Below, in pieces: positions 9,186-38,184 of a DNA stretch of 59,104 nucleotides. Below the pieces are notes generated by a model. That model made no database searches. It was not told the DNA's origin and saw only the letters and a list, made by a program, of their open reading frames with translations. The stretch's first letter is position 1. Each line of letters starts with the position of its first letter. The position numbers were made by a program, and so were the translations under genes. The DNA is from a virus. The stretch is taken from positions 1-59,104 of IMG/VR virus record IMGVR_UViG_3300044995_000110; one strand, given 5' to 3'.

Positions 9186-9197
9186 AATGGAAAGGCT

Positions 9198-10055
9198 ATG
9201 GCAAGGATTTGCAGCGAAGAGCTTGGGAATGTAATTCCTCCAAGCGATTCTTGCCCCGAATCTGGCGGGTGTGCTGAACAGCGGGCTTGCAACGATAGCT
9301 TGCCACAGGTTGCCCCGCCCGTGGGCTTATGCCCTGAGTCCGGTGGCTGTGCTGAAACACGCACTTGCAACGACACCTTGTTGCCACTTGTTCCTCATGG
9401 GGAGTCGTGTCCAGAAAATGTTGGGTGCGAGGAATTTCAGGGGGAAATATGGCCAGTTGAATTAATCATTGAATGCATTGGCCATGTCGATGACGACCTG
9501 AAGGTGACGAAGAATGGTGAAACATTGAAGCAGCCGGGACTTGAATACTGGGACCATGTTTTGAATAAGTGGACCAACCAATGGAGACGGTGGACGCCGC
9601 CCCCGGGCTTTGCCCCCCCCCATCCAAATACCCCTCAATTCTTCCCAATCACCGAATCTAACCGCAAATGGAATGTGTCGTGGTATGCGGGGGCTAATTT
9701 TGCGACGGAAAACTTTATCCGCATCCGCTATCGTGGTCCAATGCAGCGCTTGGACTTAATTGAGATGTTTGCCGTAGATAGCTTCCAGTTTAATTGGCGC
9801 ACCTCGCCTTGGAAAGCTAAGGTAACTTACAGCAACGGGGCCAAATGGGTGACAACTGGCGGGGAGATGCGCACTGGGGCCTCGCCCGACACTCCGAGCC
9901 CGCCCCTGATCAACCCAAACGGTCCACCACCCTATCAGAACATCAACCAGTATGCGGCAGCCAATGGGATGCCGAGCTATTTTTCCCAAGGCTATCCTGC
10001 CAGCGGGCCATACTTTGAACACATAGAGCCAATGGGCGGCTTTGTCATTCCTTGA
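9198..10055 (+). CDS. Hypothetical virion protein with three N-terminal Cys-rich repeats
   Basis: CPESGGCAEQRACNDSL, CPESGGCAETRTCNDTL and CPENVGCEEF repeat in the first about 80 aa. Confidence 0.7.
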   Translation: MARICSEELGNVIPPSDSCPESGGCAEQRACNDSLPQVAPPVGLCPESGGCAETRTCNDTLLPLVPHGESCPENVGCEEFQGEIWPVELIIECIGHVDDDLKVTKNGETLKQPGLEYWDHVLNKWTNQWRRWTPPPGFAPPHPNTPQFFPITESNRKWNVSWYAGANFATENFIRIRYRGPMQRLDLIEMFAVDSFQFNWRTSPWKAKVTYSNGAKWVTTGGEMRTGASPDTPSPPLINPNGPPPYQNINQYAAANGMPSYFSQGYPASGPYFEHIEPMGGFVIP

Positions 10056-14289: not shown

Positions 14290-17200
14290 AACAACAAGAA
14301 ATTCCCAACAATTTTTTAGACAGCGAGGATAATGGCAGCAGCATGGCTACGCCTATGCCGGATTGGCTTAAGCCAACGGCCTTGTCCAACGGCCAGGGCG
14401 AGAGACTAAATAGCGCCGGAGGAGATTACCAACTTCGGCTGGGCGAATTTAGGGCGCGTTCTGCTGCCCTTGACCTTGTTAATTCAGCGGCAAGCGGGCA
14501 AGACCCCAAGGGCATGTTTGAGGCTTATAAGAATGGGATTCCCACAAGTGGCGGCAAACTGATTTACGACGCTGACAGTCTGTCGCCTGCTTATGCTGTG
14601 GCCTCTTCCATCTTTAATGGCAAGGAAAAGCTATTGTTCCAATATACGCCTCTTCCCCCAGGCGAAGAAAGCAAAGGGGGGAACAGTGTTGTCAAGCGCT
14701 TCCGTGTTATAGGAGACGATCCATTTAAGGCATTGGATCAGGCCCGGAGGGCTGGCGTCTTGCCAGACAGCGATTTCGCTTCGCTTTCCAAGTTTTACCA
14801 GGCCAATTACGAAAGCACCCAAAAGACACAACAAAACATCGACAAGACTTTTGGGGAAATGAAGTGGTATGATGCCTTTGGTGTTGGGTTAAGCCAAGGC
14901 TTGGGCACTTGGGGCGATCTGCCGCAGTTGTTGAATGGGCTTCAACAGCGTGCGTTCGGCAATGAAGAAGAAAAAAGGCGGCTTGCCGAACAAAAAATCC
15001 AGGAACTTCAAATCAACGCATTTGGCCGCCCGCAGCAGAGATTTGGGAAGGGCGCAGAGACATTATACTCACTTGGCAATGAGGCTGGCGTCATGACCCC
15101 CATGTTTGTTGGGTATGTTGTCCCGCCTGCCGCCATTGTCACTATGCCGTCTTACCTTACCGTGCAGGTAGCACGGAGCTACAACAGCGGATGGGATGAG
15201 GCGCTGCAGCGAAAATACCAGGATGGCGCCAATCTAAATGATGCCATTTCTTATGCCGATATAGCGGCAAAGGCTACGACCAGCATTGAGTTTGGATCGG
15301 AGTTGGCGGAGTCACTACTACCGTTTGCAAGGCTAGCCAAAGGCGTGCGCGGCGCGGTGCGTCCTTTTGCTGAGATTGGGGCGCAGGGCCTTGCGGGGGG
15401 CACTAGCGAAGCCATTTCGCAAATGGGGCAAAACCTTGTATTGGGCAAACCAATTGCCGATGATGTTGGCCAAAGCTTTGTGGTTGGTGGGGCACTTTCT
15501 GGATTGGCCTCTGGTCTTAATCAGATGCGGTCGGAGAGGGATTGGCGCAAGCAATACAAAGCATTAACCACTTCGGATGATAACGTAGCTGCTTACCTTT
15601 GGGCAAATGCAAACGCCGAAACCGTAGTGGCTGTCGATAAAAATGGCAATCCCGTCCAACTCAAAGACCTTCCAGCCGAGTTCCAATTTCAAATTTCAAA
15701 AGACATGGTGCGCCAGTCTAAGTTGGCGCAGTCGTCTGGCGTCACCGTCGAATCTCTTGAATCGCTTTCTCCGCTCAAGCGTGTCGCAGCATTAAGGGAA
15801 TTAAGTGTTGATGACTTGGCCCGGATCGCGGCAGCGCGTCAAATTGAGGTAAGCGCTAGCGGGAATTTCACTCAATCGGAACTAGACAAAAGCCTTGAAG
15901 AAGAACTGCGTCGCCGTTCAGAAGAAGAGGCGGGCTGGAGCGATCAAGAGTTTATCTTGAAGATGGGGACTGCTCGCTATGAAATTTTGTCCAACAACCC
16001 CGACTGGGCGGCGGCTGAGGAGAAGGCTTCAGCCAAGCGCCGTGCGGCCAGTGAGGCGGCCCAAGCTGCCTCAGCGGTAGGTCCGGCTACGCAAGCCGCC
16101 TTTCAGCAAAAGGCGGAAGAACAAGGTGCGCAGGCCAACCAACAAGAAGCCATCTCCCAGCCAATTCAGGCTAAAGATCAGAAGAAGCAAGAGATGGCAA
16201 CCAATGCCGACTTGGGCTTAGTTGCGCCTATTGCAGAAGAAGAGGCGGATGCCTCAGAAGCAGCGCAACCCGTTGTGCCACAAGAACCGTCGGCAACGCA
16301 AAGCCCTCAAGAAGCAAAAGAAGAAAAACAAAGCGCGGCGGCACGACCTGTTGCACCACCTCAACCTGTTGCACAAGAATCTTCCCCAGTTGCTAAACCA
16401 GCAGAAGAACAGGCCCCAGCACCTCAACCACGATCCGAGCAAAATGATGAGGGGATAGCTAGCACTGCTGCACCCGCTCCATTGGCCCCCCAATCTCATT
16501 CTCCGGCTCAACAACCACAAGCTCAAAAGCCCAAGCCACCCATGACTGGGTGGGTCACTACGAATGATTTGGATAAAATTTTGGGCACCTTAGCCGACGC
16601 CATAGCTTCTGAATATGCTCCTGATTTAAGAATGCGGATGTTTGGCGTGTATAACACAGATGAAGTTATGTCGGCTGTCCAAGACTTGCTTAAAAATGGA
16701 TGGGTGTATGACAAATCGAAGGGGCGGATGGCTAACCCCCAAAACTGGGGCGAAAAGCCTGTGGATGGCCTAAAGAGGATTCGTGGTGGGGATTGGTCCC
16801 CAGCCCCGGCAATACAAAAAATTTTCCGAGCCCCACAATCTCAGGCTGCCGCCGAAGCAGCAGCCTCAAATCAGCAGGAACCCCAGCAACCAGTTTCACA
16901 AGCAGAAAGAGTCGAGACCAATGAGCAAGCCGGAACGTCATCATTACCTCAACAAACTCAGAAACCTCAAGAATCTGACTCCAGAGGAGATCGAGGAGTT
17001 GCACGAAGAGGGGTGCCGGTGGCGAGTGACGCCAGCCAGGAAACGCAAGGGCAAGCACAACAAGCAACAGAAGAACGCCCCCAGCCAAGAACTGGATTAA
17101 GCGTAACCACGCCAGTCGCGGGACCGAAAGAGCAAGCTGTCGATAAGAAGAAACAGGCGCCCAAGCCACTGACACCCGAAATTGAGACCCCATCCCCAAG

Positions 17201-20200
17201 CAAGGCGAGGGGCGAGCGCAGCCCCAGGAAAACAAAGCAGGCCAACGAAAAGGCCGCAACATCCAAGATTGCCGACATTCTCGATGGGAAAATTAAACAA
17301 CATGGCAAAGGGCAGAGAACTATCAAGCTTGCCGAAGCGCAAAAGCAAGAGCTTGTGGCATTTCTCTTAAAAGCGCGTGAATTTGCCGACAGCATTGCAT
17401 CAAACCCCACTACGTTCACGTGGTTTGATGAGGCAACCAAGTTGCAGGCCATTGATGATGCAGCCTACCAGGCCGCGCGCCGAGCCTTGCTTTGGATCGA
17501 GCAATACGGCTCATTGGAAGCAAAGAACGAGCAGGGACGCGGATTTGCGTGGGTGAACTACATGAAGCCAACACTGCGCAAGTATGCTGCTAGTGAAGCC
17601 AATGCGCCCAAGATTAGCCTAGATGCCCAGCCTGTAGAAAAAGCATCCAATCAAAGCGATGGGGATACCAATGTTGAAGATGGCTTGGGCGTTGGTGAAG
17701 AAGAAGTTGGGACTGAAGGCGATGACATTAACGAGCCGCCCATTCAACAGTTCACAGAGGATGGCGAGCCAATAGAAAGTGGGGCCGAAACGCTGGACAA
17801 TTCCATTGCCACTCCCGAAAGCCCAGAAAGGGCAAAGATTCGTCAAGAGATTAATGACGAGCTAGAGAAGGTGGCAGCGCAGACTAAAGAGAAAATCAAT
17901 AATTCCTCTATTCCTGCAACAATCAAGAATGCGCTCATCAATTTAGTCAACGACGAGCTTCGCCAGTCTGACATGCAGGCGATTTGGGAGTTCATTGAGA
18001 CCAACAGGGAGCAGCAGCCTTTTGTTGCTGACATTCTTCAGGAATGGAAAGAAAGGCGTGATGAGCTTGCCCGCTTTGCCAGTAAAGGCAGGAGGAAGAT
18101 CGAAGGGTTGCAATGGAGCATGGCCAATGACACGCAACTCAAGGTGCGCAACGTCATCCAGCGCCTTGCCAGAGTTTTGCTGCCAGAAGGCATTGATATT
18201 GCCTGGCTTAACGATCCCACTGATCCTGCCGCCATGTTTGTCGAGGTTGGGGAGTCGAACGTCGTTTTTGCCAACCTGTTCCGCTTGGCTGAAACCTTTA
18301 ATGAACTTGGCAACATGGGGGCCAAGGAAAAAGAAAAAGCCTTCGAGGAATACGTTAGGGCCGTTCTTGCCGAAGAAATGCATCACCTTGCGCACGACCA
18401 GGTGATGATGAAGCTTTGGGAGGAGTCTGGCACTGAGATGTCTTATGAGGAGTTTGTGGCCGAACATGGTCGTAGGCTCATTGATGAAATGGGCATAACC
18501 AAGGCGGAGCAATTCGCCGCCAGATACCTTCAGGCATCCCGTGTTTTGACATTACGCAACTCGTCTGGCGAGATTATTGGCTTTGCCAATGCCGATAGCG
18601 GCAGCGTGGGTGACGTCCTTTGGATTGACAATTTCTTCCCTGAGTTTGCCGCCGAATGGAGCGCGCATTCTCGTGGCCAATTTTCTGCGCCAGAGGCTTT
18701 TGATCTGGCTGGAATGCCTACTCTGAAGCAGTTTTTCTATCGCTTGGCCAATCTCCTGAAAACTTGGATGGCCAAAATACGGGGCAACTTCCCTGAGCTA
18801 CGCGAACGTCTTGCCGCCATTGATGAGGCTTTGAAAGCCGTGGAGAACGCCCCTAAGTTGGCCGAGGAGATGTCTCGCCAATCGCTTCAGGAAAGAATGG
18901 CGCTGCCATCCGCTCAAAGACGGGCCTCTCGTGGTAGAGTTTCTGACAAAGAGCTGATGGACAAATTTGCCGATCTTGAGGCGGTTGGATACAAATTCAT
19001 TGCCAAGCTACAAGGCGACAATGGGGCCATTTTGGCGATAAATAAATATGGCACAAAAGTTGTCCTTAAACGCGGACGCGGCCTAGAACAACGGCTTGAA
19101 GAATTTTTTGCCCACAAAATTCATGCCTTGTGGCAAACACTTTTTAATGACGTGAAAGATATTGGGGTGCTTGCCCCATCAGTAAAACTTATTAGCAAAT
19201 ACGGCTCAAATATAAGCGGCGAATGGAACATTGTAAGGCCAATCAGTGATACGGAGTGGTTTGATAATGAGTTGGTGCGCGCAGAATGGATTGAGAAACA
19301 ATACATTGAAGGCCCAACATTAGGGGAATACATTAAATCCTTGGAGCAACTTCCAGAAAGCGAGGCAAAATTTAAGCTCGATTCCTTGAAAGCTGCGCTT
19401 CGCAGTGGGTATTGGGTGGACCTGCTTCTGCAGAACCTTGATGGTGGCGGGGATAATTTGAGCAACATCATTGTTGATGATTCATTCTCATACGTCCCTG
19501 TGCCTTATCGCGTTAGCATGAGTGGCGCGCTTGGGTATAAGTCTAATGGCGAACCTAAAAGCAAATCAGAACTTGCATGGTCGGACAAGGAAGTGTTTGC
19601 CTTGTTGCCGGATAACGTCAAAAAGATGTTTTTGCGCAAGGGCTTAGATATACCCAGCATACCGGGGCTGTCCGATCTTTATGGGGAGATGAGCATTGAG
19701 GAGCTAAATGATGGCCTTGCCAAAATCCTGTGGGAATTTCATGGCGCATTTAGAAAAGTAATGGAAAATAAAAGCCCTAGATTGCGTGCAATTCTGGGCG
19801 TGCTGAAGAATCGCATGGCCGTCATTCAGAACGCATTTGGCGATACTTCCTTGCGGATGAAGAACTCAAAGAATATGACGGCAAATGAGTTCGTGGATGC
19901 CGCATGGGATGCCCGCAAGCAGCTTTTAGAAGTCCCTCTTGTCCGTGATGAGGCGGGCCTTGTCGCACAAGATCATCCTGTTTTCCAAGGCAATACGACG
20001 GCATATTATACATGGGTAGCCAATGGACGCCTGCTTAATCCTTACGGTGGTCCAAGCTTGCTTACGGAATCTCAGTGGCGGGCTGTTCGCACCCCGAACT
20101 TTATGGAGTGGGCTGGCGGTGACTGGCGTATTGGTGAGGGGAATGTTATTCTTGACCAACTGACTGGCGAGCCAAAGGTTTTTTATCATTCAACCACGGT

Positions 20201-23200
20201 GCCAGAGCTAAAGTCTCTTGCGCCAGATAATAATGGCCTTTACTTCTTAGCTGAAGATGAGCGGCACGGGAGAGTCATCTCCAATCAAACGCAAAGTCAG
20301 CTCAATTCGCCAATCGTTTCCCTGCCATTGTTCATGCGCGCTAGGAAGTTTTTGGACGCCAAGAATTACAACGAGATTAAGGCGGTCATTGATTACGGAA
20401 GAAGTGGGGCCGCTGACAAATACAGCCAGACCACAAAGGATGAGTTTGAGAAAACTGCGGACCTGATTGAGTTGCAAGCTAAAATATTGTTACGCGCAGA
20501 ACAACAAAATAATCCAAACGCCACAATTGAAGATGCTTGGAGCAAGATTAAAAATGTTTGGGGCTTGGTCGAAAATCCTGGGTTTTCTACGATCCTCAGA
20601 GAAATGGGCTATGACGCCATTAAAATGAGCGAGGAAATATTCCCCAAATTTGGGGATGTGCCAACTTGGGGCGTTTTTTACTCCAACAATATTAAGCTGG
20701 CTGGAGATGAAGCAATTTTTGAGGGTGGGCAAAAAGGGCCGTTGCCAGGCGATCCAAATACTGGGATATTTTCGGAAAGCCCCAACATCCGCGCCTCGCG
20801 TGGGCGCAAAGGAAAAGCAAAAAATGAAAACAAAACTGCTGAAACTGAAGCAAGGACAGACATATCTGGAACACCCGGAACACCAGAGGCGGCAAGAGGA
20901 AGTGAAACGCCTTTTGCGAAGCTGTCCCGAGAACTCGCCAGAATTTCAAAAGAGCTTGGCGCTGATGAAGGCGACCATGAAGCGCAAATAATTTTGGGTG
21001 AATATGCCATTCGCCAGATGATGGAGGATGGGCGAATCAAGAAATTGCCTTGGCCCAAGAAGCCTTCGGGGAGTGGGTTTGAGCACGTTGTCCAGATTCG
21101 TGGGCGGGAAGTTTACAAGTTCACCAGCAATAGCCAAGGGGTGCCTTCAGGCTATCGGGCAGTCCCAGTAGCGACCATCAACGGCATCCCTAGGGTTGTT
21201 ACTGGGAATGCGACGCCTTCGGAATATCTGGAGCGGTGGGACACATTCAACCATGTCTTTGGCGGTGTTGCGCCGGAAGTCACGTTTGAGGGCGCTGCCG
21301 AGCGGCCAGACGGGACCATTGCCTTGGTGGTCAAGCAGGATTTTGTGCCTGGGGATGAGCCTACCATTCAGGAGATTTCTGATTGGCTAAAAAGCGAGGG
21401 CTTTGAGCCTGTGGGGACGGCAAGGGCGTGGTTTCGCCAATCTGATGGCGTTGCCTTGGCCGACGTAAAGCCAGACAACTTCAGGAAATACAAAGGGCAA
21501 ATCATTCCTCTGGACATCCCCATTACAATTCTACCGAGGCTTGACGCAGCAAGAAGGGCCACAAGAGGACGCACTAACCCCAAAGAATACGCCTTGGGCA
21601 AGATGCGGCGGCAGAAAACACACGTCGAAGAAGCCTTCGACAGCTTGCGCGCCAATATAGAGGCCATTAAAGATGCTGGCTGGAACCGCATCAAGTGGCT
21701 TGTGGTTCAGAAGGCATTTAACAAGCAGTATGCCCTGCACGAGATGGAAAAGACTTTCAACCAGATTGTGCGTGGGCGCGGACGCGAGCTTCTTTCTGGG
21801 AAAGAGAGTGCAGCCAAGTTTGCGCAAGTTGCCACTGATGCTTATTCCATGGCGCACGAAGCCTTGTGGCTTGGCATCCCCGTGATGAAGGACGGAGCTT
21901 TCCAGGTGGATAACCGGGTGCGTGGTGTTGCCATGATATTTAAGGACATCCGCGACAAATATGGTGAGGATGGGCTAAGAGACTTCATGGGATATATGGC
22001 CGGGCGGAGGGCCAGCGAACTCAAGGCCATTGCTGAAGCCGAGCTTAATTCACTTTTGGCATCTAGTTCTCGCGCAGCCAATATTTTCAATGACATGCAA
22101 AAGCTTCGTCGCGATCAGCACCTTGAGATTATTGGGCTGAAAGCAGAAGATGCCAAGCTGCATACCGATGCAGAGCTTGTTGCTTTGGCTGCCATGACGC
22201 GGCTTGAAATCCCGCGCCGCGAAACCCTTTTCAGCAAGGCTGAGATTGCGGCGCTTTTGGCCATGAAGCGTGAAGGCTTTGAGGAAGCATTTGCCGATTA
22301 CCAGGCCAACGTGCGTGGCGTCATGGATTTTGCGGTGGCCACGGGACTAGTTTCGCCGGAGCTGCGCGATCACCTTGAAAAGCTGCACACACAGTATGTT
22401 CCGTTCTATCGGGCAATTGATCCGATGGCAGGCGAGTTGTATGGGCCGCCGACATCCAAGAGAGGCTTTGCAGACCAGCGCAGCGGCATCCGTCGAATCC
22501 TTGGGGGCACAGAGCCGTTGAATGATCTATACGAAAACATCGAGCGCAACATGGTCCACATGATGGTGGCGGGCATTAAAAACATAGTCATGCTCCGCGC
22601 AGTGGCTATGAGTGACGCCATCAACGCCAAGCAGAGTGCGGAAGCTAAGGCGAAGAGGGATGCCGCAATTAAGGAGGCTGAGGCGGAATTTGCCAAGATT
22701 CAATCTGACCTCAAGAAGAGGCTGGCGAATGGCGAGATTAGTGAGCCAGACTATGAGCGGCAAAGGGTTCAGGCAGAGCAGGCTTTGGCAATCCGCAAGG
22801 ATGAAATCAATGAACAAATGGCGCCCGATGGTCCGCAGTTCATGGTCCCTGTTTCTCAAAAAGAAAAAGTGGCCATCTCCAACTGGGCCATCATGCGGGA
22901 GCTTGAGAAACAGGGAGTGCCGGAGGAGCTTTCGCAATATATTGACCCCTCTGTTTGGGTGAACATCTATGCTATTGGGCGTCCACAAAAGGGGAGCGAC
23001 ATTGTTTCCTTTATGAAGGACGGCAGGGTTCAGTATCGCCGCATTGTGGATGACCTGGTTTGGGATTCTTTTGAGGCTATGAGCCGAGGGGCCATAGGGG
23101 CTGGGAATCCTTTTATGACGCTGGCTCGCTTTGCGCGGAGACTTTTCCAGAGCAGCATTACGATTACTTTGGAGTTTGTGGGGGCAAACGCCATGCGCGA

Positions 23201-24752
23201 CACAATGGCATCGTGGCTACAAAACAAGGATATGGCTGTCCCTATTATAGAAACAATGCGTGGGGCTTTGGCGTGGGCCAGCAACCGCCAAGTGGTAAAA
23301 AAGCTTATGGGGCGGGATGGCGAAATTAGCGACCTAGACCGCATTTTCTTGGCAGGGGCCGGCGACCCTTCAACTTTCCGCCAAGAAGGCGTAACTAGGG
23401 AAAGCATTACTTCTGTCACGCGCCCAAGGATTTCTAGAATCATCAAGGCTGACAACCCGCAGGCACTTTGGCAGGCTCTTGAGGCCTTGCGGCGTGCTGG
23501 CAACGCTACGCTTCAAGCCGCCGAGACTTTTGGCCAAGCCACAGAAAGTGCCACCCGCACGCAGGTGGCCCTAAACACTCTCAAGAGGACAGGCGACTTA
23601 GTGGAGGCGGCGTGGGCTTACCGTGAGGCAACCACGGACTTCTCGCTTTCTGGTAGTAGCAAGATGATTCAGTTTTTGGCGCAGACTGCCCCATTCTTTA
23701 ATGCGGGGATGCAGGGCTTAATCCGCATGGGCCGCGCTATGAATACGAGAACATTTTGGACGCGCGGCTCCATGCTTTTTGCAATCTCCACATTGCTCGC
23801 ATTGCGGAACTGGGATGATGATGACTACGACAAGCTGCCTGACGACATTAAGGACCGCTATTGGGTTTATCTCACAGGCAATAAGGGAGACGCGGATCGA
23901 ACCATGATCCTCATTCCCAAGCCATTTGAGATTGGAACCATGTTGGGAACAGTGCCAGAGCGCCTGACGGTAGCCTTCATGAAGAAGGCAGAGGGTGAGT
24001 TTGGCAAGGCGGATATGAGGGAGTTAACCTACCGCTTAGGATACCTAGCAACCAACATGCTGCGCCTTAACCCAACACCACAGCTCGTCAAGCCGATCCT
24101 TGAATTGCATGCTGGCCCTGGCGGCTGGAAGTCTTACTTCGAGCGTGAAATTGAGCCGGCCAACGTGCGGGCCTTGCCACCGGAAGCAAGGTATTATCCA
24201 ACCACGCCCTTCACAGCAAGAGGCATTGGCGAGAAGCTTGGAGTTAGTCCGCTAAAAGTGCAGCATTTTGTCGAAGGGTATTTCGGGACAATGGGCACCT
24301 ACGCCATGATGGCTGCAGATGCTATCTACAAGAACTTTGCTGACGTGCCGCCGCCCCCTAAGCAGGAGTGGTGGGAAAATCGAGTTTTGGGTGTTGGCCG
24401 ATTCATCAAGAACCCACAAAATGTAAGAACTAAATACCCTGACTTATTCTACAAGATGGCCGATGAAACTCAGGCACTTGCCCGTCGCGTGCGCCAGGTT
24501 GCTGAGGCCATGGACTTAGAAGAAACCAATCGTCTCTTGAAAGCGGACCCTATGGTGCTTGAGCGCAGCAGGGTGCTTGGCAAATATGAGAGAGATCTGA
24601 CAAATATCAACAAGTTGATCAATCAGATTTGGGCAAGCCGCGAGATGACGCCCGAAGAGAAGCGCGACCAGTTGAATCGTTTGTATCAGCTAAAAACACA
24701 GCTTCAGCGAGAAGGTCTGTCAATAGGGAAAAAGCTGCAAGCGCAAGAATAA
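14286..24752 (+). CDS. Giant (3,488 aa) polyvalent / internal virion-type protein with kinase-like and ART-like modules
   Basis: This is a single uninterrupted ORF. A kinase-like module (nt about 21060-21540) has GSGFEHVV, VYKF, ADVKPDNF and IPLD. A second kinase-like region (nt about 18990-19520) has VVLKRG ... LLQNLDGGGDNLSNIIVDD. An ART-PolyVal-like module (nt about 20100-20800) has EPKVFYHSTT, GLYFLAED, GYDAIKM, VFYSNNIKLA and NTGIFSESPNIRAS. A P/Q/A/E low-complexity linker spans nt about 16000-17300. Confidence 0.9.
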   Translation: MKQQEIPNNFLDSEDNGSSMATPMPDWLKPTALSNGQGERLNSAGGDYQLRLGEFRARSAALDLVNSAASGQDPKGMFEAYKNGIPTSGGKLIYDADSLSPAYAVASSIFNGKEKLLFQYTPLPPGEESKGGNSVVKRFRVIGDDPFKALDQARRAGVLPDSDFASLSKFYQANYESTQKTQQNIDKTFGEMKWYDAFGVGLSQGLGTWGDLPQLLNGLQQRAFGNEEEKRRLAEQKIQELQINAFGRPQQRFGKGAETLYSLGNEAGVMTPMFVGYVVPPAAIVTMPSYLTVQVARSYNSGWDEALQRKYQDGANLNDAISYADIAAKATTSIEFGSELAESLLPFARLAKGVRGAVRPFAEIGAQGLAGGTSEAISQMGQNLVLGKPIADDVGQSFVVGGALSGLASGLNQMRSERDWRKQYKALTTSDDNVAAYLWANANAETVVAVDKNGNPVQLKDLPAEFQFQISKDMVRQSKLAQSSGVTVESLESLSPLKRVAALRELSVDDLARIAAARQIEVSASGNFTQSELDKSLEEELRRRSEEEAGWSDQEFILKMGTARYEILSNNPDWAAAEEKASAKRRAASEAAQAASAVGPATQAAFQQKAEEQGAQANQQEAISQPIQAKDQKKQEMATNADLGLVAPIAEEEADASEAAQPVVPQEPSATQSPQEAKEEKQSAAARPVAPPQPVAQESSPVAKPAEEQAPAPQPRSEQNDEGIASTAAPAPLAPQSHSPAQQPQAQKPKPPMTGWVTTNDLDKILGTLADAIASEYAPDLRMRMFGVYNTDEVMSAVQDLLKNGWVYDKSKGRMANPQNWGEKPVDGLKRIRGGDWSPAPAIQKIFRAPQSQAAAEAAASNQQEPQQPVSQAERVETNEQAGTSSLPQQTQKPQESDSRGDRGVARRGVPVASDASQETQGQAQQATEERPQPRTGLSVTTPVAGPKEQAVDKKKQAPKPLTPEIETPSPSKARGERSPRKTKQANEKAATSKIADILDGKIKQHGKGQRTIKLAEAQKQELVAFLLKAREFADSIASNPTTFTWFDEATKLQAIDDAAYQAARRALLWIEQYGSLEAKNEQGRGFAWVNYMKPTLRKYAASEANAPKISLDAQPVEKASNQSDGDTNVEDGLGVGEEEVGTEGDDINEPPIQQFTEDGEPIESGAETLDNSIATPESPERAKIRQEINDELEKVAAQTKEKINNSSIPATIKNALINLVNDELRQSDMQAIWEFIETNREQQPFVADILQEWKERRDELARFASKGRRKIEGLQWSMANDTQLKVRNVIQRLARVLLPEGIDIAWLNDPTDPAAMFVEVGESNVVFANLFRLAETFNELGNMGAKEKEKAFEEYVRAVLAEEMHHLAHDQVMMKLWEESGTEMSYEEFVAEHGRRLIDEMGITKAEQFAARYLQASRVLTLRNSSGEIIGFANADSGSVGDVLWIDNFFPEFAAEWSAHSRGQFSAPEAFDLAGMPTLKQFFYRLANLLKTWMAKIRGNFPELRERLAAIDEALKAVENAPKLAEEMSRQSLQERMALPSAQRRASRGRVSDKELMDKFADLEAVGYKFIAKLQGDNGAILAINKYGTKVVLKRGRGLEQRLEEFFAHKIHALWQTLFNDVKDIGVLAPSVKLISKYGSNISGEWNIVRPISDTEWFDNELVRAEWIEKQYIEGPTLGEYIKSLEQLPESEAKFKLDSLKAALRSGYWVDLLLQNLDGGGDNLSNIIVDDSFSYVPVPYRVSMSGALGYKSNGEPKSKSELAWSDKEVFALLPDNVKKMFLRKGLDIPSIPGLSDLYGEMSIEELNDGLAKILWEFHGAFRKVMENKSPRLRAILGVLKNRMAVIQNAFGDTSLRMKNSKNMTANEFVDAAWDARKQLLEVPLVRDEAGLVAQDHPVFQGNTTAYYTWVANGRLLNPYGGPSLLTESQWRAVRTPNFMEWAGGDWRIGEGNVILDQLTGEPKVFYHSTTVPELKSLAPDNNGLYFLAEDERHGRVISNQTQSQLNSPIVSLPLFMRARKFLDAKNYNEIKAVIDYGRSGAADKYSQTTKDEFEKTADLIELQAKILLRAEQQNNPNATIEDAWSKIKNVWGLVENPGFSTILREMGYDAIKMSEEIFPKFGDVPTWGVFYSNNIKLAGDEAIFEGGQKGPLPGDPNTGIFSESPNIRASRGRKGKAKNENKTAETEARTDISGTPGTPEAARGSETPFAKLSRELARISKELGADEGDHEAQIILGEYAIRQMMEDGRIKKLPWPKKPSGSGFEHVVQIRGREVYKFTSNSQGVPSGYRAVPVATINGIPRVVTGNATPSEYLERWDTFNHVFGGVAPEVTFEGAAERPDGTIALVVKQDFVPGDEPTIQEISDWLKSEGFEPVGTARAWFRQSDGVALADVKPDNFRKYKGQIIPLDIPITILPRLDAARRATRGRTNPKEYALGKMRRQKTHVEEAFDSLRANIEAIKDAGWNRIKWLVVQKAFNKQYALHEMEKTFNQIVRGRGRELLSGKESAAKFAQVATDAYSMAHEALWLGIPVMKDGAFQVDNRVRGVAMIFKDIRDKYGEDGLRDFMGYMAGRRASELKAIAEAELNSLLASSSRAANIFNDMQKLRRDQHLEIIGLKAEDAKLHTDAELVALAAMTRLEIPRRETLFSKAEIAALLAMKREGFEEAFADYQANVRGVMDFAVATGLVSPELRDHLEKLHTQYVPFYRAIDPMAGELYGPPTSKRGFADQRSGIRRILGGTEPLNDLYENIERNMVHMMVAGIKNIVMLRAVAMSDAINAKQSAEAKAKRDAAIKEAEAEFAKIQSDLKKRLANGEISEPDYERQRVQAEQALAIRKDEINEQMAPDGPQFMVPVSQKEKVAISNWAIMRELEKQGVPEELSQYIDPSVWVNIYAIGRPQKGSDIVSFMKDGRVQYRRIVDDLVWDSFEAMSRGAIGAGNPFMTLARFARRLFQSSITITLEFVGANAMRDTMASWLQNKDMAVPIIETMRGALAWASNRQVVKKLMGRDGEISDLDRIFLAGAGDPSTFRQEGVTRESITSVTRPRISRIIKADNPQALWQALEALRRAGNATLQAAETFGQATESATRTQVALNTLKRTGDLVEAAWAYREATTDFSLSGSSKMIQFLAQTAPFFNAGMQGLIRMGRAMNTRTFWTRGSMLFAISTLLALRNWDDDDYDKLPDDIKDRYWVYLTGNKGDADRTMILIPKPFEIGTMLGTVPERLTVAFMKKAEGEFGKADMRELTYRLGYLATNMLRLNPTPQLVKPILELHAGPGGWKSYFEREIEPANVRALPPEARYYPTTPFTARGIGEKLGVSPLKVQHFVEGYFGTMGTYAMMAADAIYKNFADVPPPPKQEWWENRVLGVGRFIKNPQNVRTKYPDLFYKMADETQALARRVRQVAEAMDLEETNRLLKADPMVLERSRVLGKYERDLTNINKLINQIWASREMTPEEKRDQLNRLYQLKTQLQREGLSIGKKLQAQE

Positions 24753-32344: not shown

Positions 32345-33781
32345 TTAAGCGAGTTGGACTGGCATCAGTAATGAAGTCATGCCATTGGGCGATTCCGCAT
32401 GCAGCGGGTCTTTGTCACTTGCGAAGTCAATCTTGGTGTGGCCGACATCCAAGATGTCGATAAATAAGTCGCGGTTGAATGCAACCTTGAGGCATTCGCC
32501 TTTGACCGTGATGGCCAACGGGCCGACCACATTGACTTTGCCATCTTGGGTTTTGGATTCCAACAAAACGCCACTTCCTGGGTTAAGCCCAAGCACAAAG
32601 GTTTTGTTTTCTCCCGCCACTGGGAGGTTCTTGAGGCTAGACTTCAGGAGTTCTCTTGTAGTTTCATCCAAGAGAAGGCTGGCTTTACAGGGCCGCTTCT
32701 TCATGACTTCCTTGTAATTGGGATAGGAACCCTCCATTTCCCTTACGGAAAGGCTGGCGGATTGGCCGGCCTGGATGGTGATGAAAGTGTTGCCATCCCA
32801 TGCATGCCCGCCACTGTGCTTAGTTTTTTCCAAGATGATCGTCCACGGATTGTTTCGGAATATTGTCGAGTCAATCACCGCACGAGACGGCAGGATGAAC
32901 GACTGCCCGAAGTTGACATCGAACTTGGCACTGACGTGCATTTTCTTGGCGTCAGTGCTTGTAAAGACGACTTGGTCTCCAACTTGGTCGAAATAGATTG
33001 AGTTGAGAATATAGCGCTTGGGGTCCCTGCTGGCCGCATCGACAACCTGGTAAATGGTGTCGCGCATGTGGTTGGGAATTTCCACGGACTTGGGTTGTTC
33101 GATTGGCTCGTAGCCTGCAAGGTAGGGATAGTCAGCCACGTCGAAGGCGTCCACTATGCGCTGGGCTTTCACATCATTGGCTGTGTAAGCGGCCTTGCAC
33201 TGACTTTTGTCCAGCTTTTGGATTGTGATTGGGGTGTTTGCATTCGCTGCCTTAGCAATCTCCAGGAGTTGCTTATGGTCAATCGCTGCCGTTACCGTTG
33301 AGCTTCCGCCCGGAACTGTGATAGACAGTTTCATATGTGTGTTGCAGTGCGACAACTTGACCTGTCCTTCTTTTTGCTCAAGCAAGACAGCCCCTAAGAT
33401 AGGGATGCGCTTGGCTTCTTGGCGATAAATGATCTTGCCCAAGTCCTGCAATGCCTTGGTGAGTTGTCTTGAGGCGAGCAGGCCAATGGTGTTTTCGTCG
33501 GTAGTGATTTGCATAATGGATTGCTCCTGTTTTTGGGTTTTGCGTTTGGTGGGCTTGGATTCTTTTGGGCTTCCCTGGGTGTCGGCAATATTCCAATCAA
33601 TGATGTCCCATCCATCAAATGTCATGCCGCGCTTTTCCATTTCGGCGCGGACAGAAGCCTCATTCTTTACCACCTCAACAATCTGCATAAAGCTCAGTTT
33701 GGCGCGGCGCACAGGCAGCACGTTGCCCGCCGCCGTGCGGTATGTCGATGGCTCGAATTTTAGGGTGTCTAGCAGTGTCAT
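32345..33781 (-). CDS. dnaN: DNA polymerase III beta sliding-clamp homologue with an N-terminal extension of about 130 aa
   Basis: LNSIYFDQVGDQVVFTSTDAKKMHVS, EGSYPNYKEVM, VAFNRDLFIDILD and the C-terminal MTSLLMPVQLA are clamp-typical. The start is set at ATG 33781 (MTLLDTLKF...). Confidence 0.8.
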   Translation of the reverse strand: MTLLDTLKFEPSTYRTAAGNVLPVRRAKLSFMQIVEVVKNEASVRAEMEKRGMTFDGWDIIDWNIADTQGSPKESKPTKRKTQKQEQSIMQITTDENTIGLLASRQLTKALQDLGKIIYRQEAKRIPILGAVLLEQKEGQVKLSHCNTHMKLSITVPGGSSTVTAAIDHKQLLEIAKAANANTPITIQKLDKSQCKAAYTANDVKAQRIVDAFDVADYPYLAGYEPIEQPKSVEIPNHMRDTIYQVVDAASRDPKRYILNSIYFDQVGDQVVFTSTDAKKMHVSAKFDVNFGQSFILPSRAVIDSTIFRNNPWTIILEKTKHSGGHAWDGNTFITIQAGQSASLSVREMEGSYPNYKEVMKKRPCKASLLLDETTRELLKSSLKNLPVAGENKTFVLGLNPGSGVLLESKTQDGKVNVVGPLAITVKGECLKVAFNRDLFIDILDVGHTKIDFASDKDPLHAESPNGMTSLLMPVQLA

Positions 33782-33785
33782 GATT

Positions 33786-34016
33786 TTATGGCTCGATGGT
33801 TGTTTGGTTGTAGTAGTCAAGTATCTCCATGGAGTCTCTGATCTCCGGCCTGCGGAGTTGGTAAGCGAGAACGTCCTTGGCTTGTGGATGGTCAAGGGGC
33901 ATATACCACGGCAGGTTAGACGCAATAATGCCCTGGTGGACCACCCCTTCTGGGGTTCGGATTTTATACCAAACCCAGTTTTCGTATGGTTGTGGGGATG
34001 GATTTTCTTTGCTCAA
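33786..34016 (-). CDS. Hypothetical protein
   Basis: A 76-aa ORF between the RT and clamp genes. Confidence 0.55.
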   Translation of the reverse strand: MSKENPSPQPYENWVWYKIRTPEGVVHQGIIASNLPWYMPLDHPQAKDVLAYQLRRPEIRDSMEILDYYNQTTIEP

Positions 34017-34037: not shown

Positions 34038-34829
34038 TTAATCTAGTCCAAGGCGCTGGACCGCAATGCTGTGCGCGACGGTGACCTGTGCCTTAGTCCC
34101 ACTTGGGTTGCCGGAAGGCGCCTTGAGCTTCATCCACTCCTCTAGGCCGCGTGCTTGAGGTGCTCTCTTTTTGTGCTTGGCGGCGCGGAGTTTGCGCTTG
34201 ACGGCGCGGGTTGGGTGGATGCCATTGGCATCTACGGCAACGCCTGTAATGATGCGGCGGCCTGCCTTGCTGTGCTGCACGTGGGTTTTCTTGGGGTTGA
34301 CCTTGAACCCATGTGCCTCGACTATCTTGGGGACTTCTTGGAGGACGAACGGGATGTCCTCCTCGTTGTTCCCGGAGAACGTCAGGTCGTCGGCATATCT
34401 GGTGTAGCGGATGCCGCGCGGGGCAACCGCCTTTTGGATAGCCTCATCCATGGGGGCGGCGGCAATATTGGCCACAAGTGGGGATGTGGGGAGACCCTGT
34501 GCTGCTACCTTGCACTGAAACATGGAATAAAAGCACGCCGATGGGATGCGATTGCAGTGTGGGGCCACCTTGTCGTCAGTCACCGTGTCGAAGAAATCGG
34601 CCAAGTCGAAGCAGGCGGACCATTTGTAGCCGACGTGGGCCATGGCATTGGTCACAGGAGACTTGCCGATCATGAAGCCGTGGACAATTTCCTTGTCGCA
34701 GACTTCTGCAGCTAGGCTGTGGAGCTTGGGCAGTGCCATGCGAAGCTCTCTTTTGTAATCATAGCGTGGCACCGCAATGGTGCGGTGCCCGCCACTTTTC
34801 TTGGGGATTTTGATGATTTTGGCTTTCAT
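34038..34829 (-). CDS. Reverse transcriptase, retron-type, compact (263 aa)
   Basis: RT motifs occur in order: IPKKSGGHRTIAVP, FDLADFFDTV, QGLPTSPLVANI, YTRYADDLTFS (YADD) and GFKVNPKKT. The retron-typical NAxxH (TNAMAH) and xTG (RRIITGVAV) motifs are also present. Confidence 0.9.
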   Translation of the reverse strand: MKAKIIKIPKKSGGHRTIAVPRYDYKRELRMALPKLHSLAAEVCDKEIVHGFMIGKSPVTNAMAHVGYKWSACFDLADFFDTVTDDKVAPHCNRIPSACFYSMFQCKVAAQGLPTSPLVANIAAAPMDEAIQKAVAPRGIRYTRYADDLTFSGNNEEDIPFVLQEVPKIVEAHGFKVNPKKTHVQHSKAGRRIITGVAVDANGIHPTRAVKRKLRAAKHKKRAPQARGLEEWMKLKAPSGNPSGTKAQVTVAHSIAVQRLGLD

Positions 34830-35314
34830 GGTGTTGGGTTATGGTGGATGGGCAATCGAGTCATTTACCGGGAGGTTAATGACGTTGGTATTGGTTGCCC
34901 GTCATCGACTTAGAAGGCGAAGCGCACTTCGTCTCGGGGCAACAGGCATTGCCATCCTTGGGAAGTTGGGGGTGAGGGGCGTGATGACTTGGCGTGGGAT
35001 CGTGTCAATAATGTTGAAAAGCGAGCAAGCCGGAGTCCAAAGGAGGCGAGGAATTTGGACGGAGGCTTGCGAGCGAGGGCAACATTATTGCACCAAGACA
35101 ATGGATGCAACTCCTACGCGGCGTGCTTGGCATGCCTGTTGGCGCCCACGACCTTCCCTTGTGGCACCTAGTAGGTGTGCGCCCACAAAGGCTTGTCATG
35201 GACGGCAGGCATACGGCAAGCCGCGCGCTGTCGGGATACCCGGCGAAGCGCACGGACCCTGGCTGCACCGACGCATCTCACGCTTGGGGCATCACAGCCC
35301 CTCACTAAACTGTC
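34830..35314 (-). ncRNA. Candidate retron msr/msd non-coding RNA region
   Basis: This 485-nt gap has no credible ORF and lies directly upstream of the RT on the same strand. It holds an 85-nt three-tier hairpin at 35006-35090 and two long-range inverted-repeat pairs (35297-35305/34972-34980 and 35132-35141/34940-34949). The exact RNA ends are unknown. Confidence 0.45.
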
Positions 35315-36616
35315 TTAACGTATTCTTGTGCTGTCTCCGAATGGTGGGTTTATGGATGAAGTCAACACCCAAAGAATGGGGATGGGTGGTGGTTTACCAA
35401 ACTCGCCGCAGCCGTCGGTCAAGTAGATGATGCATTCCGGTGGCTCTGGCAATTCGCATGCTGCCTTGATGGCGGGGCGAAAGTCGGTTCCCCCGCCGCC
35501 AACGGCGCGGGGCGTGATTTGATCGCCAGGCTCGTATTCGTCGATGTGGTTGACCCTAGCATCGGCATACATGACGGTCAGCTTGACCGGCTTGCAGTCG
35601 TCCATGATTGCCTGAATCTCGCCAATGAACTGGGCCAACTCCTCATTGCTTATGGAGCCGGACGTGTCGATGACGGTGACGATGTGGCCAACACATTCAC
35701 TGTCCATGGATGGGAGGAAGTAGCCGTAGGGCATGTATCGTGGGTTGGGGCGACTCCACGAGTAGTCATCACGGATGCGGCAATTGACGAATTGCCGCAG
35801 GACTTCCTGCCAAGGGATTGCTGGCTTGAGCATTTCGCCCACTAGGCGCTCCATGAATCCTGGGAGTTTGCCTTGCGCCTTGGCCAAGGTAGCGGCGACG
35901 GATAGGGCGGATTGAAGCTCTGCCTTAGCTTCTTCCATCTCGGCCTTGTCGCCTGGGTAATCTTCCACCATGCCCTCTGATGGATGGTCTCGGCCACTTC
36001 CACCTTTCCCGCTTTCCTTGGCTTTCTGGCCTTGCCCTTGCCCCAGCCCTTGCCCTTGGCCTTGGCCTTGGCCTTGCCCTTTCCCCTTTCCCTGTTCCTG
36101 CCCTTGGGCCTGCCCTTGCCCTTGGCCTTGGCTTTGGCTCTCCCCTTCCTCGCCATCTTGGCTTTGGCCTTGTCCCTGCTCCTTGGGGCTTTGGGAATTG
36201 GTGGCAATCTTGGCGTAGATTTGCTCGGCAGACATGTCCTTGTATTTTTTATCCACAAGGCCACCTGACGGCAGGCTGATATGGGCTCCTGCGCGCCTGT
36301 AGGAGTATTCCATGAGGTGGTTGTTGATGGCGTAGTCCGCAGCCATATTCCATATCATGGGATCGCGTCCATCGCGGCGCAGGTGGTGACCAAGGGCCAC
36401 ATGCATGACCTCGTGCACGAGCACCCCGCGCAGCTCTGCATCATTGAGCCTTGCGGAAAATCCAGGATTGAATTTAATCCATTTGCCGTTGGTGCAGAAG
36501 GTGGGGATGCCGGCATCCTCCACCATGGAGAGGCGCATTAGAAGCGACCCGAAGAAAGGATCGCTTAGGATGATGTCCATCCTAGCTTTTTTAATTCTTT
36601 CGGTCTGACTATTCAT
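35315..36616 (-). CDS. Zn-metallopeptidase-like (DUF2201_N-type) plus VWA domain protein
   Basis: HEVMHVALGH is an HExxH motif, followed by WNMAADYAINNHL. The VWA MIDAS motif is VIDTSGS. A G/Q-rich linker joins the two domains. Confidence 0.8.
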   Translation of the reverse strand: MNSQTERIKKARMDIILSDPFFGSLLMRLSMVEDAGIPTFCTNGKWIKFNPGFSARLNDAELRGVLVHEVMHVALGHHLRRDGRDPMIWNMAADYAINNHLMEYSYRRAGAHISLPSGGLVDKKYKDMSAEQIYAKIATNSQSPKEQGQGQSQDGEEGESQSQGQGQGQAQGQEQGKGKGQGQGQGQGQGLGQGQGQKAKESGKGGSGRDHPSEGMVEDYPGDKAEMEEAKAELQSALSVAATLAKAQGKLPGFMERLVGEMLKPAIPWQEVLRQFVNCRIRDDYSWSRPNPRYMPYGYFLPSMDSECVGHIVTVIDTSGSISNEELAQFIGEIQAIMDDCKPVKLTVMYADARVNHIDEYEPGDQITPRAVGGGGTDFRPAIKAACELPEPPECIIYLTDGCGEFGKPPPIPILWVLTSSINPPFGDSTRIR

Positions 36617-36934: not shown

Positions 36935-37195
36935 TCATTGTGCAACGGCAAGGGCCATCCGTCGGAAGGCCTCGATGTATTCTTTGGCCAGCTTCCGCGC
37001 CGCGTCTGCCTCATCTATGCTGGAAAAGCTCCATGTCTTAGTGGGGCTTTTGCCGCAGAAACACACGGCAATTTCTAAGGCGTATCTGCATTCGCCAAGA
37101 CCATGGATTCTCAACACTACATGGAATGGGCGATGGTGTGGCCTCTGCGCAACGAACCAGTTGCTTAGAGAATTGAGGAATCCTTCTGATCTCAT
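36935..37195 (-). CDS. Small protein, tandem paralogue 2
   Basis: An ATGA overlap couples it to the AAA+ gene stop. The C-terminus is TWSFSSIDEADAARKLAKEYIEAFRRMALAVAQ. Confidence 0.6.
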   Translation of the reverse strand: MRSEGFLNSLSNWFVAQRPHHRPFHVVLRIHGLGECRYALEIAVCFCGKSPTKTWSFSSIDEADAARKLAKEYIEAFRRMALAVAQ

Positions 37196-38184
37196 GAGAG
37201 GACGTGGACGTTCTTGACCACCCACTTGCTATATGCCGGGGTTTTTATTAACTCCTTATTATACCTGCAGGCATCCCTGAAGCCACACACCTCGAACTCT
37301 TTGTCGAGGCGCTCTAGGTAGCACACCACCTTATCAAAATTATCGACAGTGGCGCGCTTGGCCAGCCCAGCAATCACAGCGTAGTTGCCGGCCGGCGTCT
37401 TGGGCAGCTTGGCCGTGTTTGGGTTGGCCAGGATTTCGTCAACTGCGGGGACGTCCTGGCACGTCTTGAGGAAGCCGAAAAACTCGGCCCCTGCGGCCTC
37501 GCCAATGAAGCCGCTGAACACGGCAAGGTCGATCACCTCAATCGTGCCATCCTCGCCCGTAATAAATCGGGAGAGAGCATCCCAAGAACGAGGGCACGCA
37601 TAGGGCGCGTTCTGTGCCCAGTTCTTGGGGTTGAAGTCATAGATCAAATCAGGCCGGACCCGCACGAATGCAATGATTTCTGGGGCTATGCCATTGCTTA
37701 TTGCCCATCCAACCCAATCCTCAGCACTTGCTTCGAGGTGGATGTGAAGGAAGCGGCTGACAAGTGGGGATGGCATGGGATTAGACACTGCGCGGTCGCC
37801 GGTGCCGTTCCCCGCCGCCACCACCGACCAGCCATCGGGAAGTTGGTATTCCCCGATGGCTCGGTCTAGGGTAAGCTGATATGCCGCCGCCTGCACCGAC
37901 TTTGGCGCAGCGGGCAACTCGTCCAGAAAGAGCACCCCGTTGCCGCCCTTGGGCAGGAATGAGGGTTTGAGCCAGACGGTCTCGCCGTCCAAGACCGAGG
38001 GAAGACCGCGAAGGTCCACCGGCTCAAAGTAGATTAAGCGCATGTCGCTCAATGCTACTTCGAGCTCTTTGGCCACCTGCTTCACGATGGCCGATTTACC
38101 AACCCCCGGCGGCCCCCAAAGCATCACCGGCTGACGCTTTGTGTAGGCTGCTTTGAGGGTTTTTGCTACTTGTGTTGCGTTCAC
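37192..38184 (-). CDS. MoxR-like AAA+ ATPase (AAA_5 type)
   Basis: Walker A is GPPGVGKS and Walker B is VLFLDELP. A sensor-like VVAAGN motif follows. The protein is 330 aa. Confidence 0.85.
   Translation of the reverse strand: MNATQVAKTLKAAYTKRQPVMLWGPPGVGKSAIVKQVAKELEVALSDMRLIYFEPVDLRGLPSVLDGETVWLKPSFLPKGGNGVLFLDELPAAPKSVQAAAYQLTLDRAIGEYQLPDGWSVVAAGNGTGDRAVSNPMPSPLVSRFLHIHLEASAEDWVGWAISNGIAPEIIAFVRVRPDLIYDFNPKNWAQNAPYACPRSWDALSRFITGEDGTIEVIDLAVFSGFIGEAAGAEFFGFLKTCQDVPAVDEILANPNTAKLPKTPAGNYAVIAGLAKRATVDNFDKVVCYLERLDKEFEVCGFRDACRYNKELIKTPAYSKWVVKNVHVLS

Follow-up and report, generated by a model that had tools for sequence, protein, structure and literature searches.

Retrons are currently pictured as bacterial elements in which one reverse transcriptase (RT) serves one template and which bring about abortive infection through a coupled effector. 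What, then, is a retron-like locus doing in the genome of a virus, and is it a retron at all? We addressed this question for a 59,104-nt stretch of viral DNA (positions 1 to 59,104 of the IMG/VR record IMGVR_UViG_3300044995_000110; hereafter the window), in which a 263-aa open reading frame (ORF) and the 485 nt directly upstream of it had been proposed, in a first-pass annotation made from the letters alone, to encode a retron RT together with its msr/msd RNA. We conclude that the locus is very probably a retron. On balance we also favor the wider view that it is a genuine retron from a new RT clade borne by mobile elements and equipped with natural multi-template arrays.

By its sequence and its predicted fold, the ORF at 34038-34829 on the minus strand is a retron-type RT. 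The motifs recognized at first sight could all be placed, with NAMAH at residues 61-65, YADD at 145-148 and ITG at 194-196 (ITGVAV, 194-199). In an alignment of 28 family members, N61, A62, H65, Y145-D148 and G196 are invariant; NAxxH, YADD and the VTG glycine, along with a C-terminal PTR...RLRAA.H...GL.EW motif, do not vary within the family. A Pfam scan of the ORF returned RVT_1 only (residues 8-186, E = 1.8e-25) and no maturase or endonuclease domain, as had been stated before, and the protein stops at residue 263. The class assignment rests on PADLOC and NCBIfam profiles, PDB sequences and the predicted fold, all of which ranked retron RTs first. The best 25 PADLOC matches were exclusively retron RT models (RT_XIII, 6e-46; III-A, 7e-43; II-A, 6e-41), and placement by hidden Markov models in NCBIfam gave retron St85 (2.9e-41), retron-TIR (4.5e-33) and Ec67 (2.9e-31) against 3e-18 for group II RTs. 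The score for retron_St85_RT was 141.7 bits with a curated cutoff of 235, and the other retron families of NCBIfam were still further under theirs. A sequence search of the PDB found the RTs of Ec86, Ec78, Ec83, Kva2 and Ec67 at 1e-18 to 1e-13, compared with 8e-10 for group II RTs. The AlphaFold (AF2) model of the RT had a predicted local distance difference test (pLDDT) of 92.9 and a predicted template modeling score (pTM) of 0.85, and the top 17 PDB matches of this model in Foldseek were retron RTs without exception (template modeling scores 0.61-0.78). The first non-retron match was a group II RT at 1e-11, and RTs of diversity-generating retroelements (DGRs) ranked far lower.

Other RT classes were considered and rejected. 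A group II intron RT does not fit because the maturase (X/GIIM) domain is missing and Rfam identified no intron RNA family. A DGR RT does not fit because there is no pair of template and variable repeats; the sole direct repeat within 34700-35450 is a 12-nt stem-loop motif. The defense-associated RTs (DRT/UG) are disfavored because their NCBIfam profiles (Drt2, 4.8e-9; Drt3a, 1e-4; Drt4, 7.5e-4) scored far worse than the best retron profile. The family to which the RT belongs comprises 776 proteins at E <= 1e-10. It falls into two size classes, a short one of ~255-300 aa that includes the RT of the window and a long one of ~415-530 aa in the loci examined, whose members carry an additional C-terminal domain without a Pfam match. 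Family members in viral contigs came from an alignment-based scan, as a single-protein scan of viral contigs with the RT of the window found no close relative. Among the matches listed, a scan of a genome collection gave only ordinary bacterial retron RTs with 30-38% identity.

The spacer (34830-35314), which separates the RT ORF from the stop codon of the next gene upstream, is a non-coding structured RNA with two abutting retron-like units on the same strand as the RT. Its folding energy of -207.1 kcal/mol compares with -157.6 +/- 5.4 kcal/mol for dinucleotide shuffles (z = -9.1), confirming the dense structure that had been noted before. In both units, a1 and a2 form a closing helix, the base right after a1 is an unpaired G, and a conserved msr stem-loop is followed by an msd hairpin. 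A single msr/msd RNA had been predicted upstream of the RT; the prediction holds for the retron architecture, which is accompanied by compensatory changes, but not for the number of units. In unit A, the a1/a2 helix is long and interrupted (spacer nt 10-40 with 315-343) and reaches -38.4 kcal/mol, an energy that no shuffle out of 1000 and no other 45-nt stretch of the window out of 3938 attained. The 9-bp pair between 35297-35305 and 34972-34980, which had been picked out earlier, is real but forms only the outer part of this helix. Inside the closing helix, the msr helix P1 encloses the conserved stem-loop and a hairpin of ~110 nt, followed by the msd hairpin, the sequence ACACG and a2. The msd hairpin is the 85-nt three-tier hairpin at 35006-35090 that had already stood out, and it was recovered in every fold. 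The remaining structures of the first-pass annotation did not hold up in the same way. A second long-range pair, 35132-35141 with 34940-34949, has no homology support, its 5' arm lying in the long msr hairpin of unit A and its 3' arm in unit B. The two local hairpins, at 35286-35301 and 34879-34905, lack conservation and compete with helices that are conserved. Enforcing the conserved stem-loop alone was sufficient to obtain the retron architecture of unit A, with G35274 unpaired, at 2.3 kcal/mol above the minimum free energy (MFE).

The closest informative relatives are two AT-rich loci, L001 and L003, whose RTs are 62% identical to that of the window (53% GC). The order ATPase, DUF2201, gap and RT is common to all three. 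The gap of 1.4 kb in L001 and L003 contains eight to nine copies of RUGCGYUUCGCC, arranged in two types of unit that correspond to units A and B. The stem-loop region of unit A is 90% identical to these repeated elements across 29 nt, and the base of its msd stem resembles the msd stems of units A1 and A2 of L001 in sequence. When folded singly, the A-type units of L001 and L003 mostly gave the a1/a2 helix, the msr hairpins and the msd hairpin, and the B-type units gave the a1/a2 helix. A covariance model, R1, built with a hand-drawn structure from six B-units of these two loci only, matched unit B over its full length (34848-34956, minus strand; 54.6 bits, E = 5.9e-9). In this match the a1/a2 helix, P1 and the msd stem all contain compensatory substitutions. 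R1 additionally matched the msr core directly downstream of the RT in L086. In an alignment of 13 units fitted to the model, 91.6% of the cells pair, compared with 68.2% after shuffling and at most 45.8% when the partner was slid, and 25 of the 31 pairs changed on both sides. A rule-based table of 14 units also shows covariation of a1 and a2 (GCUUGAU/AUCAGGC, UUUAGAU/AUCUAAA, GGCAAU/AUUGCC). In all 14, a1 ends with AU and is followed by G in the context AU-G-C/G. Blind detection of a1/a2 by RNAduplex with long flanks produced spurious whole-length duplexes and no signal.

The conserved stem-loop accompanies the RT in more distant relatives as well. It lies upstream of the RT in L255, L260, L261, L006, L007, L418 (five copies) and L419 (three copies), and downstream of it in L085 (~seven to eight copies within 1.8 kb), L086, L087 and L273, so that the number of units among relatives ranges from 2 to ~9. 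Tandem arrays with ~5-9 retron-like units per RT were seen at 8560-9990 in L001, 2490-3890 in L003, 3549-5342 in L085 and 5561-7001 in L418; a 108-aa gene called inside the L085 array (3931-4257) looks spurious. Within one array, the B-units have msr sequences that are 95-98% identical and a2 sequences that are mostly 83-100% identical, and their msd sequences are only 35-60% identical. One orthologous msd is 68% identical between L001 and L003, and its stem changes are compensated. Scanning viral contigs for the stem-loop pattern yielded 107 and 60 stretches, none of which also encodes the RT. We rejected these stretches as further arrays because they look like chance matches, except for L135, which is the L003 phage within a 55.6-kb IMG/VR viral contig. 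The spacer had no match in cultured phages. The features of the locus are collected in Table 1.

Table 1. Coordinates of the RT, the two RNA units and the candidate partner genes in the window
Feature	Position	Strand	Basis or remark
Retron-type RT, 263 aa	34038..34829	(-)	NAMAH 61-65, YADD 145-148, ITG 194-196
ncRNA (non-coding RNA) unit A, complete, from a1 and G through the msr (P1, conserved stem-loop and long hairpin) and the msd hairpin to a2	34963..35314	(-)	Constrained fold; sequence similarity to the A-type units in L001/L003
Unit A, a1 arm, GUGAGGGGC-U-GUGAUG-CCCCAA-GCGUGAGAU	35275..35305	(-)	Collinear duplex with a2
Unit A, unpaired G immediately past a1 in the conserved AU-G-C context, candidate for branching (priming)	35274	(-)	Position assigned by comparison with canonical retrons
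Unit A, msr helix P1, 5' arm GGUGCAGC	35262..35269	(-)	Pairs with 35104-35111; constrained fold
Unit A, conserved msr stem-loop CCG-U-GCG[CUU]CGC-CGG	35240..35255	(-)	Motif recurs in relatives
Unit A, long imperfect hairpin within msr (~110 nt)	35117..35227	(-)	Folds; expanded from a short hairpin at the same place in relatives
Unit A, msr helix P1, 3' arm GUUGCAUC	35104..35111	(-)	Constrained fold
Unit A, three-tier msd hairpin of 85 nt	35006..35090	(-)	Recovered in every fold
Unit A, a2 arm, AUCCCACGC-CAAGU-CAUCAC-GCCCCUCAC	34972..35000	(-)	Duplex with a1 and constrained fold
ncRNA unit B, whole	34846..34957	(-)	Covariance model R1
Unit B, a1 GGAUGGCAAU	34948-34957	(-)	R1 alignment
Unit B, candidate branching G	34947	(-)	First base after a1, by analogy
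Unit B, P1 GUUGCC/GGCAAC	34938-34943 with 34894-34899	(-)	R1 alignment
Unit B, P2 GAC/GUC		(-)	R1 alignment
Unit B, conserved stem-loop GAAG-U-GCG[CUU]CGC-CUUC	34913-34930	(-)	
Unit B, msd hairpin GUCAUU.../...AAUGAC, 24 nt	34860-34883	(-)	
Unit B, a2 AUUGCCCAUCC	34846-34856	(-)	
DUF2201 protein directly upstream of the spacer: N-terminal HExxH metallopeptidase (HEVMH at 68) and VWA-like domain (DTSGS at 317); candidate partner	35315..36616	(-)	Domain scans, motifs
MoxR-like AAA+ ATPase, paired with the VWA protein; candidate partner	37192..38184	(-)	Domain scans

The window as a whole looks like the genome of a tailed phage. It encodes a PD-(D/E)XK exonuclease, RusA, a replication protein, DnaB helicase, dUTPase, a DNA methylase and a beta clamp, as well as an M15 endolysin and a weak terminase match. 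The scans of window ORFs revealed neither an integrase nor a recombinase domain, in agreement with the first-pass annotation. The window has no nucleotide match among cultured phages and contains no tRNA gene. A single 3488-aa ORF at 14286-24752 on the plus strand, with LPD38 and Kinase-PolyVal domains, is a 'polyvalent protein', a kind thought to be delivered along with the DNA against host defenses; its first 1300 aa had no PHROG match. The RT had been described as lying between replication genes. Instead, it directly follows a pair of genes for a MoxR ATPase and a VWA metallopeptidase and precedes the sliding clamp gene, and the helicase and nuclease genes are far off. Pfam and PHROG identified only the MoxR ATPase, DUF2201 and the beta clamp among the neighbors of the RT. 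These scans, together with neighbor conservation, revealed neither a known retron effector nor a conserved small neighbor gene by the RT, and the earlier impression that a canonical effector is missing thus stands. The DUF2201 protein has a long low-complexity insert of G, Q, S and K (GQGQSQ...GKGKGQGQ) at residues ~145-200, between its peptidase and VWA domains. On the other side of the RT, the sliding-clamp ORF (32345-33925, minus strand) is listed with a TTG start far upstream; its true start is probably later because the clamp domains begin at residue ~153. A 76-aa ORF (33786-34016) just downstream of the RT overlaps the N-terminal extension of the clamp ORF and was rejected as a conserved partner because it is kept only in a 98%-identical relative.

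Several relatives differ in their gene content. Two to three tRNA genes lie ~1 kb downstream of the RT in L001 (11892-12149) and L003 (5910-6083). L420 encodes a tyrosine integrase (13419-14354) in addition to RecT, a PD-(D/E)XK nuclease, a short RT of 279 aa and a DUF2201 gene, suggesting that some members of this phage group are probably temperate. In L335, from Pelotomaculum thermopropionicum SI, a long-form family RT directly follows a group II intron RT/maturase (6604-7875 and 8001-9293), and the region also contains a P22-type antirepressor with ArdC-N, RadC and Fic genes and so resembles a prophage or integrative element. The extra domain of the long-form RTs, for example at ~255-430 in P0011, has ~170 aa with a confident predicted fold and the invariant residues D286, G292, S294, W300, C303, R348 and Y365. 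Foldseek with a long-form model gave only RT-domain matches and none for this C-terminal domain, and no separate homolog of it is encoded anywhere in the window.

The MoxR/VWA pair recurs next to short RTs. Counted raw, with shared ancestry included, ~12 of the 14 short-RT loci with enough flank have a MoxR and VWA pair on the same strand, compared with only one of 17 long RTs. The pair lies within ~3 kb of the short RTs (5 kb in L087), upstream or downstream and in varying order; in L085 the genes for the VWA protein and the RT share 4 nt. The VWA proteins belong to two subfamilies, either the DUF2201 type or a ~490-aa protein that accompanies bpMoxR and has a DESGS metal-ion-dependent adhesion site (MIDAS) motif and no HExxH. 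A short RT and the pair were seen in L001, L003, L010, L019, L085-L087, L255, L261, L275, L419 and L420; a long RT with the extra domain and no pair was seen in L006-L009, L011-L018, L020, L022, L259 and L335. L271 and L418, with a short RT and no pair, and L021, with a long RT and the pair, are exceptions to this pattern of size and pair. The distribution is at most suggestive of a third retron component that is the MoxR and VWA neighbor for short RTs and the C-terminal domain for long RTs.

By analogy with canonical retrons, we infer co-transcription, priming and synthesis of msDNA (multicopy single-stranded DNA). Both units would be transcribed together with the RT, probably by read-through from the MoxR ATPase and VWA-metallopeptidase genes, because no consensus promoter or terminator was found on the minus strand between these genes and the cassette. 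On folding, the a1 and a2 ends of each unit would pair, and the RT would recognize the conserved msr stem-loop with its stem, bulged U and GCG-YUU-CGC top. The unpaired G that follows a1 (35274 in unit A and 34947 in unit B) would supply the 2'-OH for priming, and the RT would copy the msd towards the msr to leave a branched RNA-DNA molecule. Binding of the stem-loop by the RT, 2'-OH priming and msd copying are established retron biochemistry (PMC7736814). The locus would thereby give two different msDNAs, one of ~100 nt with the 85-nt hairpin from unit A and one of ~35-40 nt from unit B. We regard msDNA production as probable, if less certain than the identity of the locus as a retron. The variation in unit number, the constant scaffold with a variable payload and the carriage by mobile elements together suggest a function in conflict, and the cassette would therefore be an accessory conflict module rather than a part of the core replication machinery.

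Several points weigh against this interpretation. The class of the RT and the architecture, conservation and covariation of the RNA were established in silico, and the msDNA, its 2'-5' branch and the transcription of the units are inferred from them. The alignment behind the count of covarying pairs was fitted to the model, which favors structure, and in its lowest-scoring rows the a1/a2 part is poorly aligned. There is an A-C mismatch in the a1 core of unit A, and the unconstrained MFE structure of unit A breaks the conserved stem-loop. Rfam gave no match in the window up to E = 10 and none at the gathering score in the relatives, and R1 does not recognize the Ec86 ncRNA; retron membership therefore rests on architecture and not on homology to a validated msr/msd. 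As for the candidate partner, the neighborhood counts include shared ancestry, the pair is missing beside the short RTs of L271 and L418, 565 cultured phage records, N4-like Salmonella phages among them, have the pair but no RT of the window type, and a role in virion assembly has been proposed for it (PMC7824862).

Which role would such a retron have? The first-pass annotation had put forward counter-defense by a decoy msDNA, superinfection exclusion or replication priming as conceivable functions. The likeliest role, put forward tentatively and by analogy, is that RT-msDNA complexes cooperate with the neighboring MoxR ATPase/VWA pair. This would resemble known retrons such as type I-A, in which an RT-ncRNA cassette is attached to an effector that also exists independently. 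A more far-reaching picture, which we consider rather doubtful, is that of a compact mobile-element RT clade whose arrays of 2 to ~9 units, as a multi-msDNA factory, would serve the phage in conflicts with its hosts or with rival elements, with MoxR/VWA as a fourteenth effector module or with the msDNAs as decoys. The neighbor would be coincidental if the msDNAs or RT-msDNA complexes were purely an anti-defense decoy that titrates host retron effectors, defense proteins sensing single-stranded DNA or nucleases, the variable msd serving several targets. Such a decoy needs no effector, in keeping with the lack of a known effector or conserved small neighbor by the RT, and the constant msr, variable msd and fast-changing unit number look like an arms race. 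The polyvalent protein and the DNA methylase in the window are also typical counter-defense equipment, and the long-form relative L335 lies near ArdC-like and Fic genes. However, the literature searched gives no precedent for an msDNA decoy, no link was found between the msd sequences and any host retron, and the MoxR/VWA neighbor of short RTs as opposed to the extra domain of long RTs is left unexplained, making a decoy function without a partner unlikely.

A housekeeping role, in which the msDNA primes replication, forms an origin-associated structure or serves as a scaffold in the DNA metabolism or assembly of the phage, appears clearly improbable. The cassette does adjoin the beta-clamp gene in the window and, in L085 and L086, the genes for DnaB, primase and DNA polymerase A, and it has been retained across RTs that are only 37-50% identical. 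The ncRNA, on the other hand, matches or complements the rest of the window over no more than 14 nt (E = 0.09), cultured phages carry the same ATPase/VWA module without the RT, and copy number and msd sequence are too variable for an essential primer. Finally, that the RT is real and uses another substrate, the upstream structures being transcription attenuators, processing sites, iterons or regulatory repeats of another kind, would agree with the missing Rfam match, with an unconstrained MFE that differs in detail from the homology model and with the reported departure of Type VI retrons from the usual high-level msDNA production (preprint 10.1101/2025.10.22.683967), but is highly improbable given four covarying retron ncRNA elements in the right order in each unit and units that track the RT whether upstream or downstream of it.

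If the locus is a retron with natural arrays, as we favor, phage-like genomes stably keep a retron clade of their own, in which one RT naturally serves tandem templates with a constant msr and a varied msd, a layout so far known only from engineering, and in which the usual effectors are replaced by nothing recognizable or possibly by the MoxR/VWA pair. Confirmation would provide a directly testable case of msDNA used on the virus side of the conflict, and very small RTs (~255-280 aa) with naturally multiplexed templates would be relevant to retron-based genome editing.

How does the locus compare with known systems? It has every sequence-level retron feature that could be tested and lies outside the curated families and types I-XIII. 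The definition of retron RTs, the list of these types and their thirteen effector types come from Mestre et al. 2020 (PMC7736814), and none of the type-defining effectors (OLD/Toprim, NDT, PRTase, 2TM, cold-shock, HTH, DUF3800, HEPN, protease, TIR, SWIM/ARM and others) is present at the locus. Retron-Eco1 (Ec86, type II-A) shares NAxxH and VTG with the RT of the window and is its best PDB match by sequence and fold (7v9u/7v9x). Its ncRNA likewise lies upstream of the RT and runs from a1 through G, msr stem-loop(s) and msd hairpin to a2. The Ec86 msr hairpin GGAUGUUGUUUCGGCAUCC, found with 100% identity in 48 E. coli genomes adjoining a 'retron St85 family' effector and RT, also ends in G-UUU-CG, as does the top of the stem-loop in the window. 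In contrast to Ec86, the window has an RT that is ~40 residues shorter at the N terminus and only ~25% identical, no NDT-type effector, two tandem ncRNAs instead of one and a phage-like host genome. Stand-alone (msr-msd)-RT cassettes without a recognized effector are known from RT clades 2 and 11 (Mestre et al. 2020, PMC7736814). They resemble the window in having an RT and an ncRNA with no recognized effector gene. By their description they are mostly found on chromosomes of Gammaproteobacteria and Actinobacteria, whereas the family described here occurs on viral or mobile-element contigs with ncRNA arrays and a recurrent MoxR/VWA neighbor.

Retrons in viruses are not new as such. The Ec67 and Ec73 elements are retrons carried by phages or satellites. 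Retrons also occupy the P2/P4 hotspots of temperate phages and satellites (PMC9122126). Annotated retron-type RTs are found in GenBank phages of Yersinia, Pseudomonas (Pf) and Klebsiella. The earlier assertion that such an element has no precedent in a phage was thus too strong, but these RTs are at most 34% identical to that of the window. The retrons of temperate phages and satellites are prophage-borne defense cargo with known effectors, whereas no integrase was found in the 59 kb of the window. For the candidate partner, the nearest parallel is the type I-A retron (Ec78/Eco7), which is described as Septu PtuAB joined to a retron, its ATPase module also existing alone (PMC12640716). There, an SMC/ABC-type ATPase works with an HNH nuclease; here, the candidate is a MoxR AAA+ ATPase with a VWA protein that does or does not contain an HExxH peptidase. 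The phage pair of MoxR AAA+ ATPase and vWA metallopeptidase described by Iyer et al. 2021 (PMC7824862) as a proposed virion-assembly chaperone has the same architecture as the two genes upstream of the cassette, and no RT was associated with it in the cases described. The literature searched contains no report of natural retron arrays, of the RT clade of the window or of a link between retrons and MoxR/VWA. The arrays themselves have their closest counterpart in the engineered 'multitrons' (bioRxiv 10.1101/2023.07.17.549397), in which tandem msr-msd units, each with its own msd payload, are served by one RT. Multitrons are synthetic, whereas the window and its relatives hold natural arrays of otherwise the same layout.

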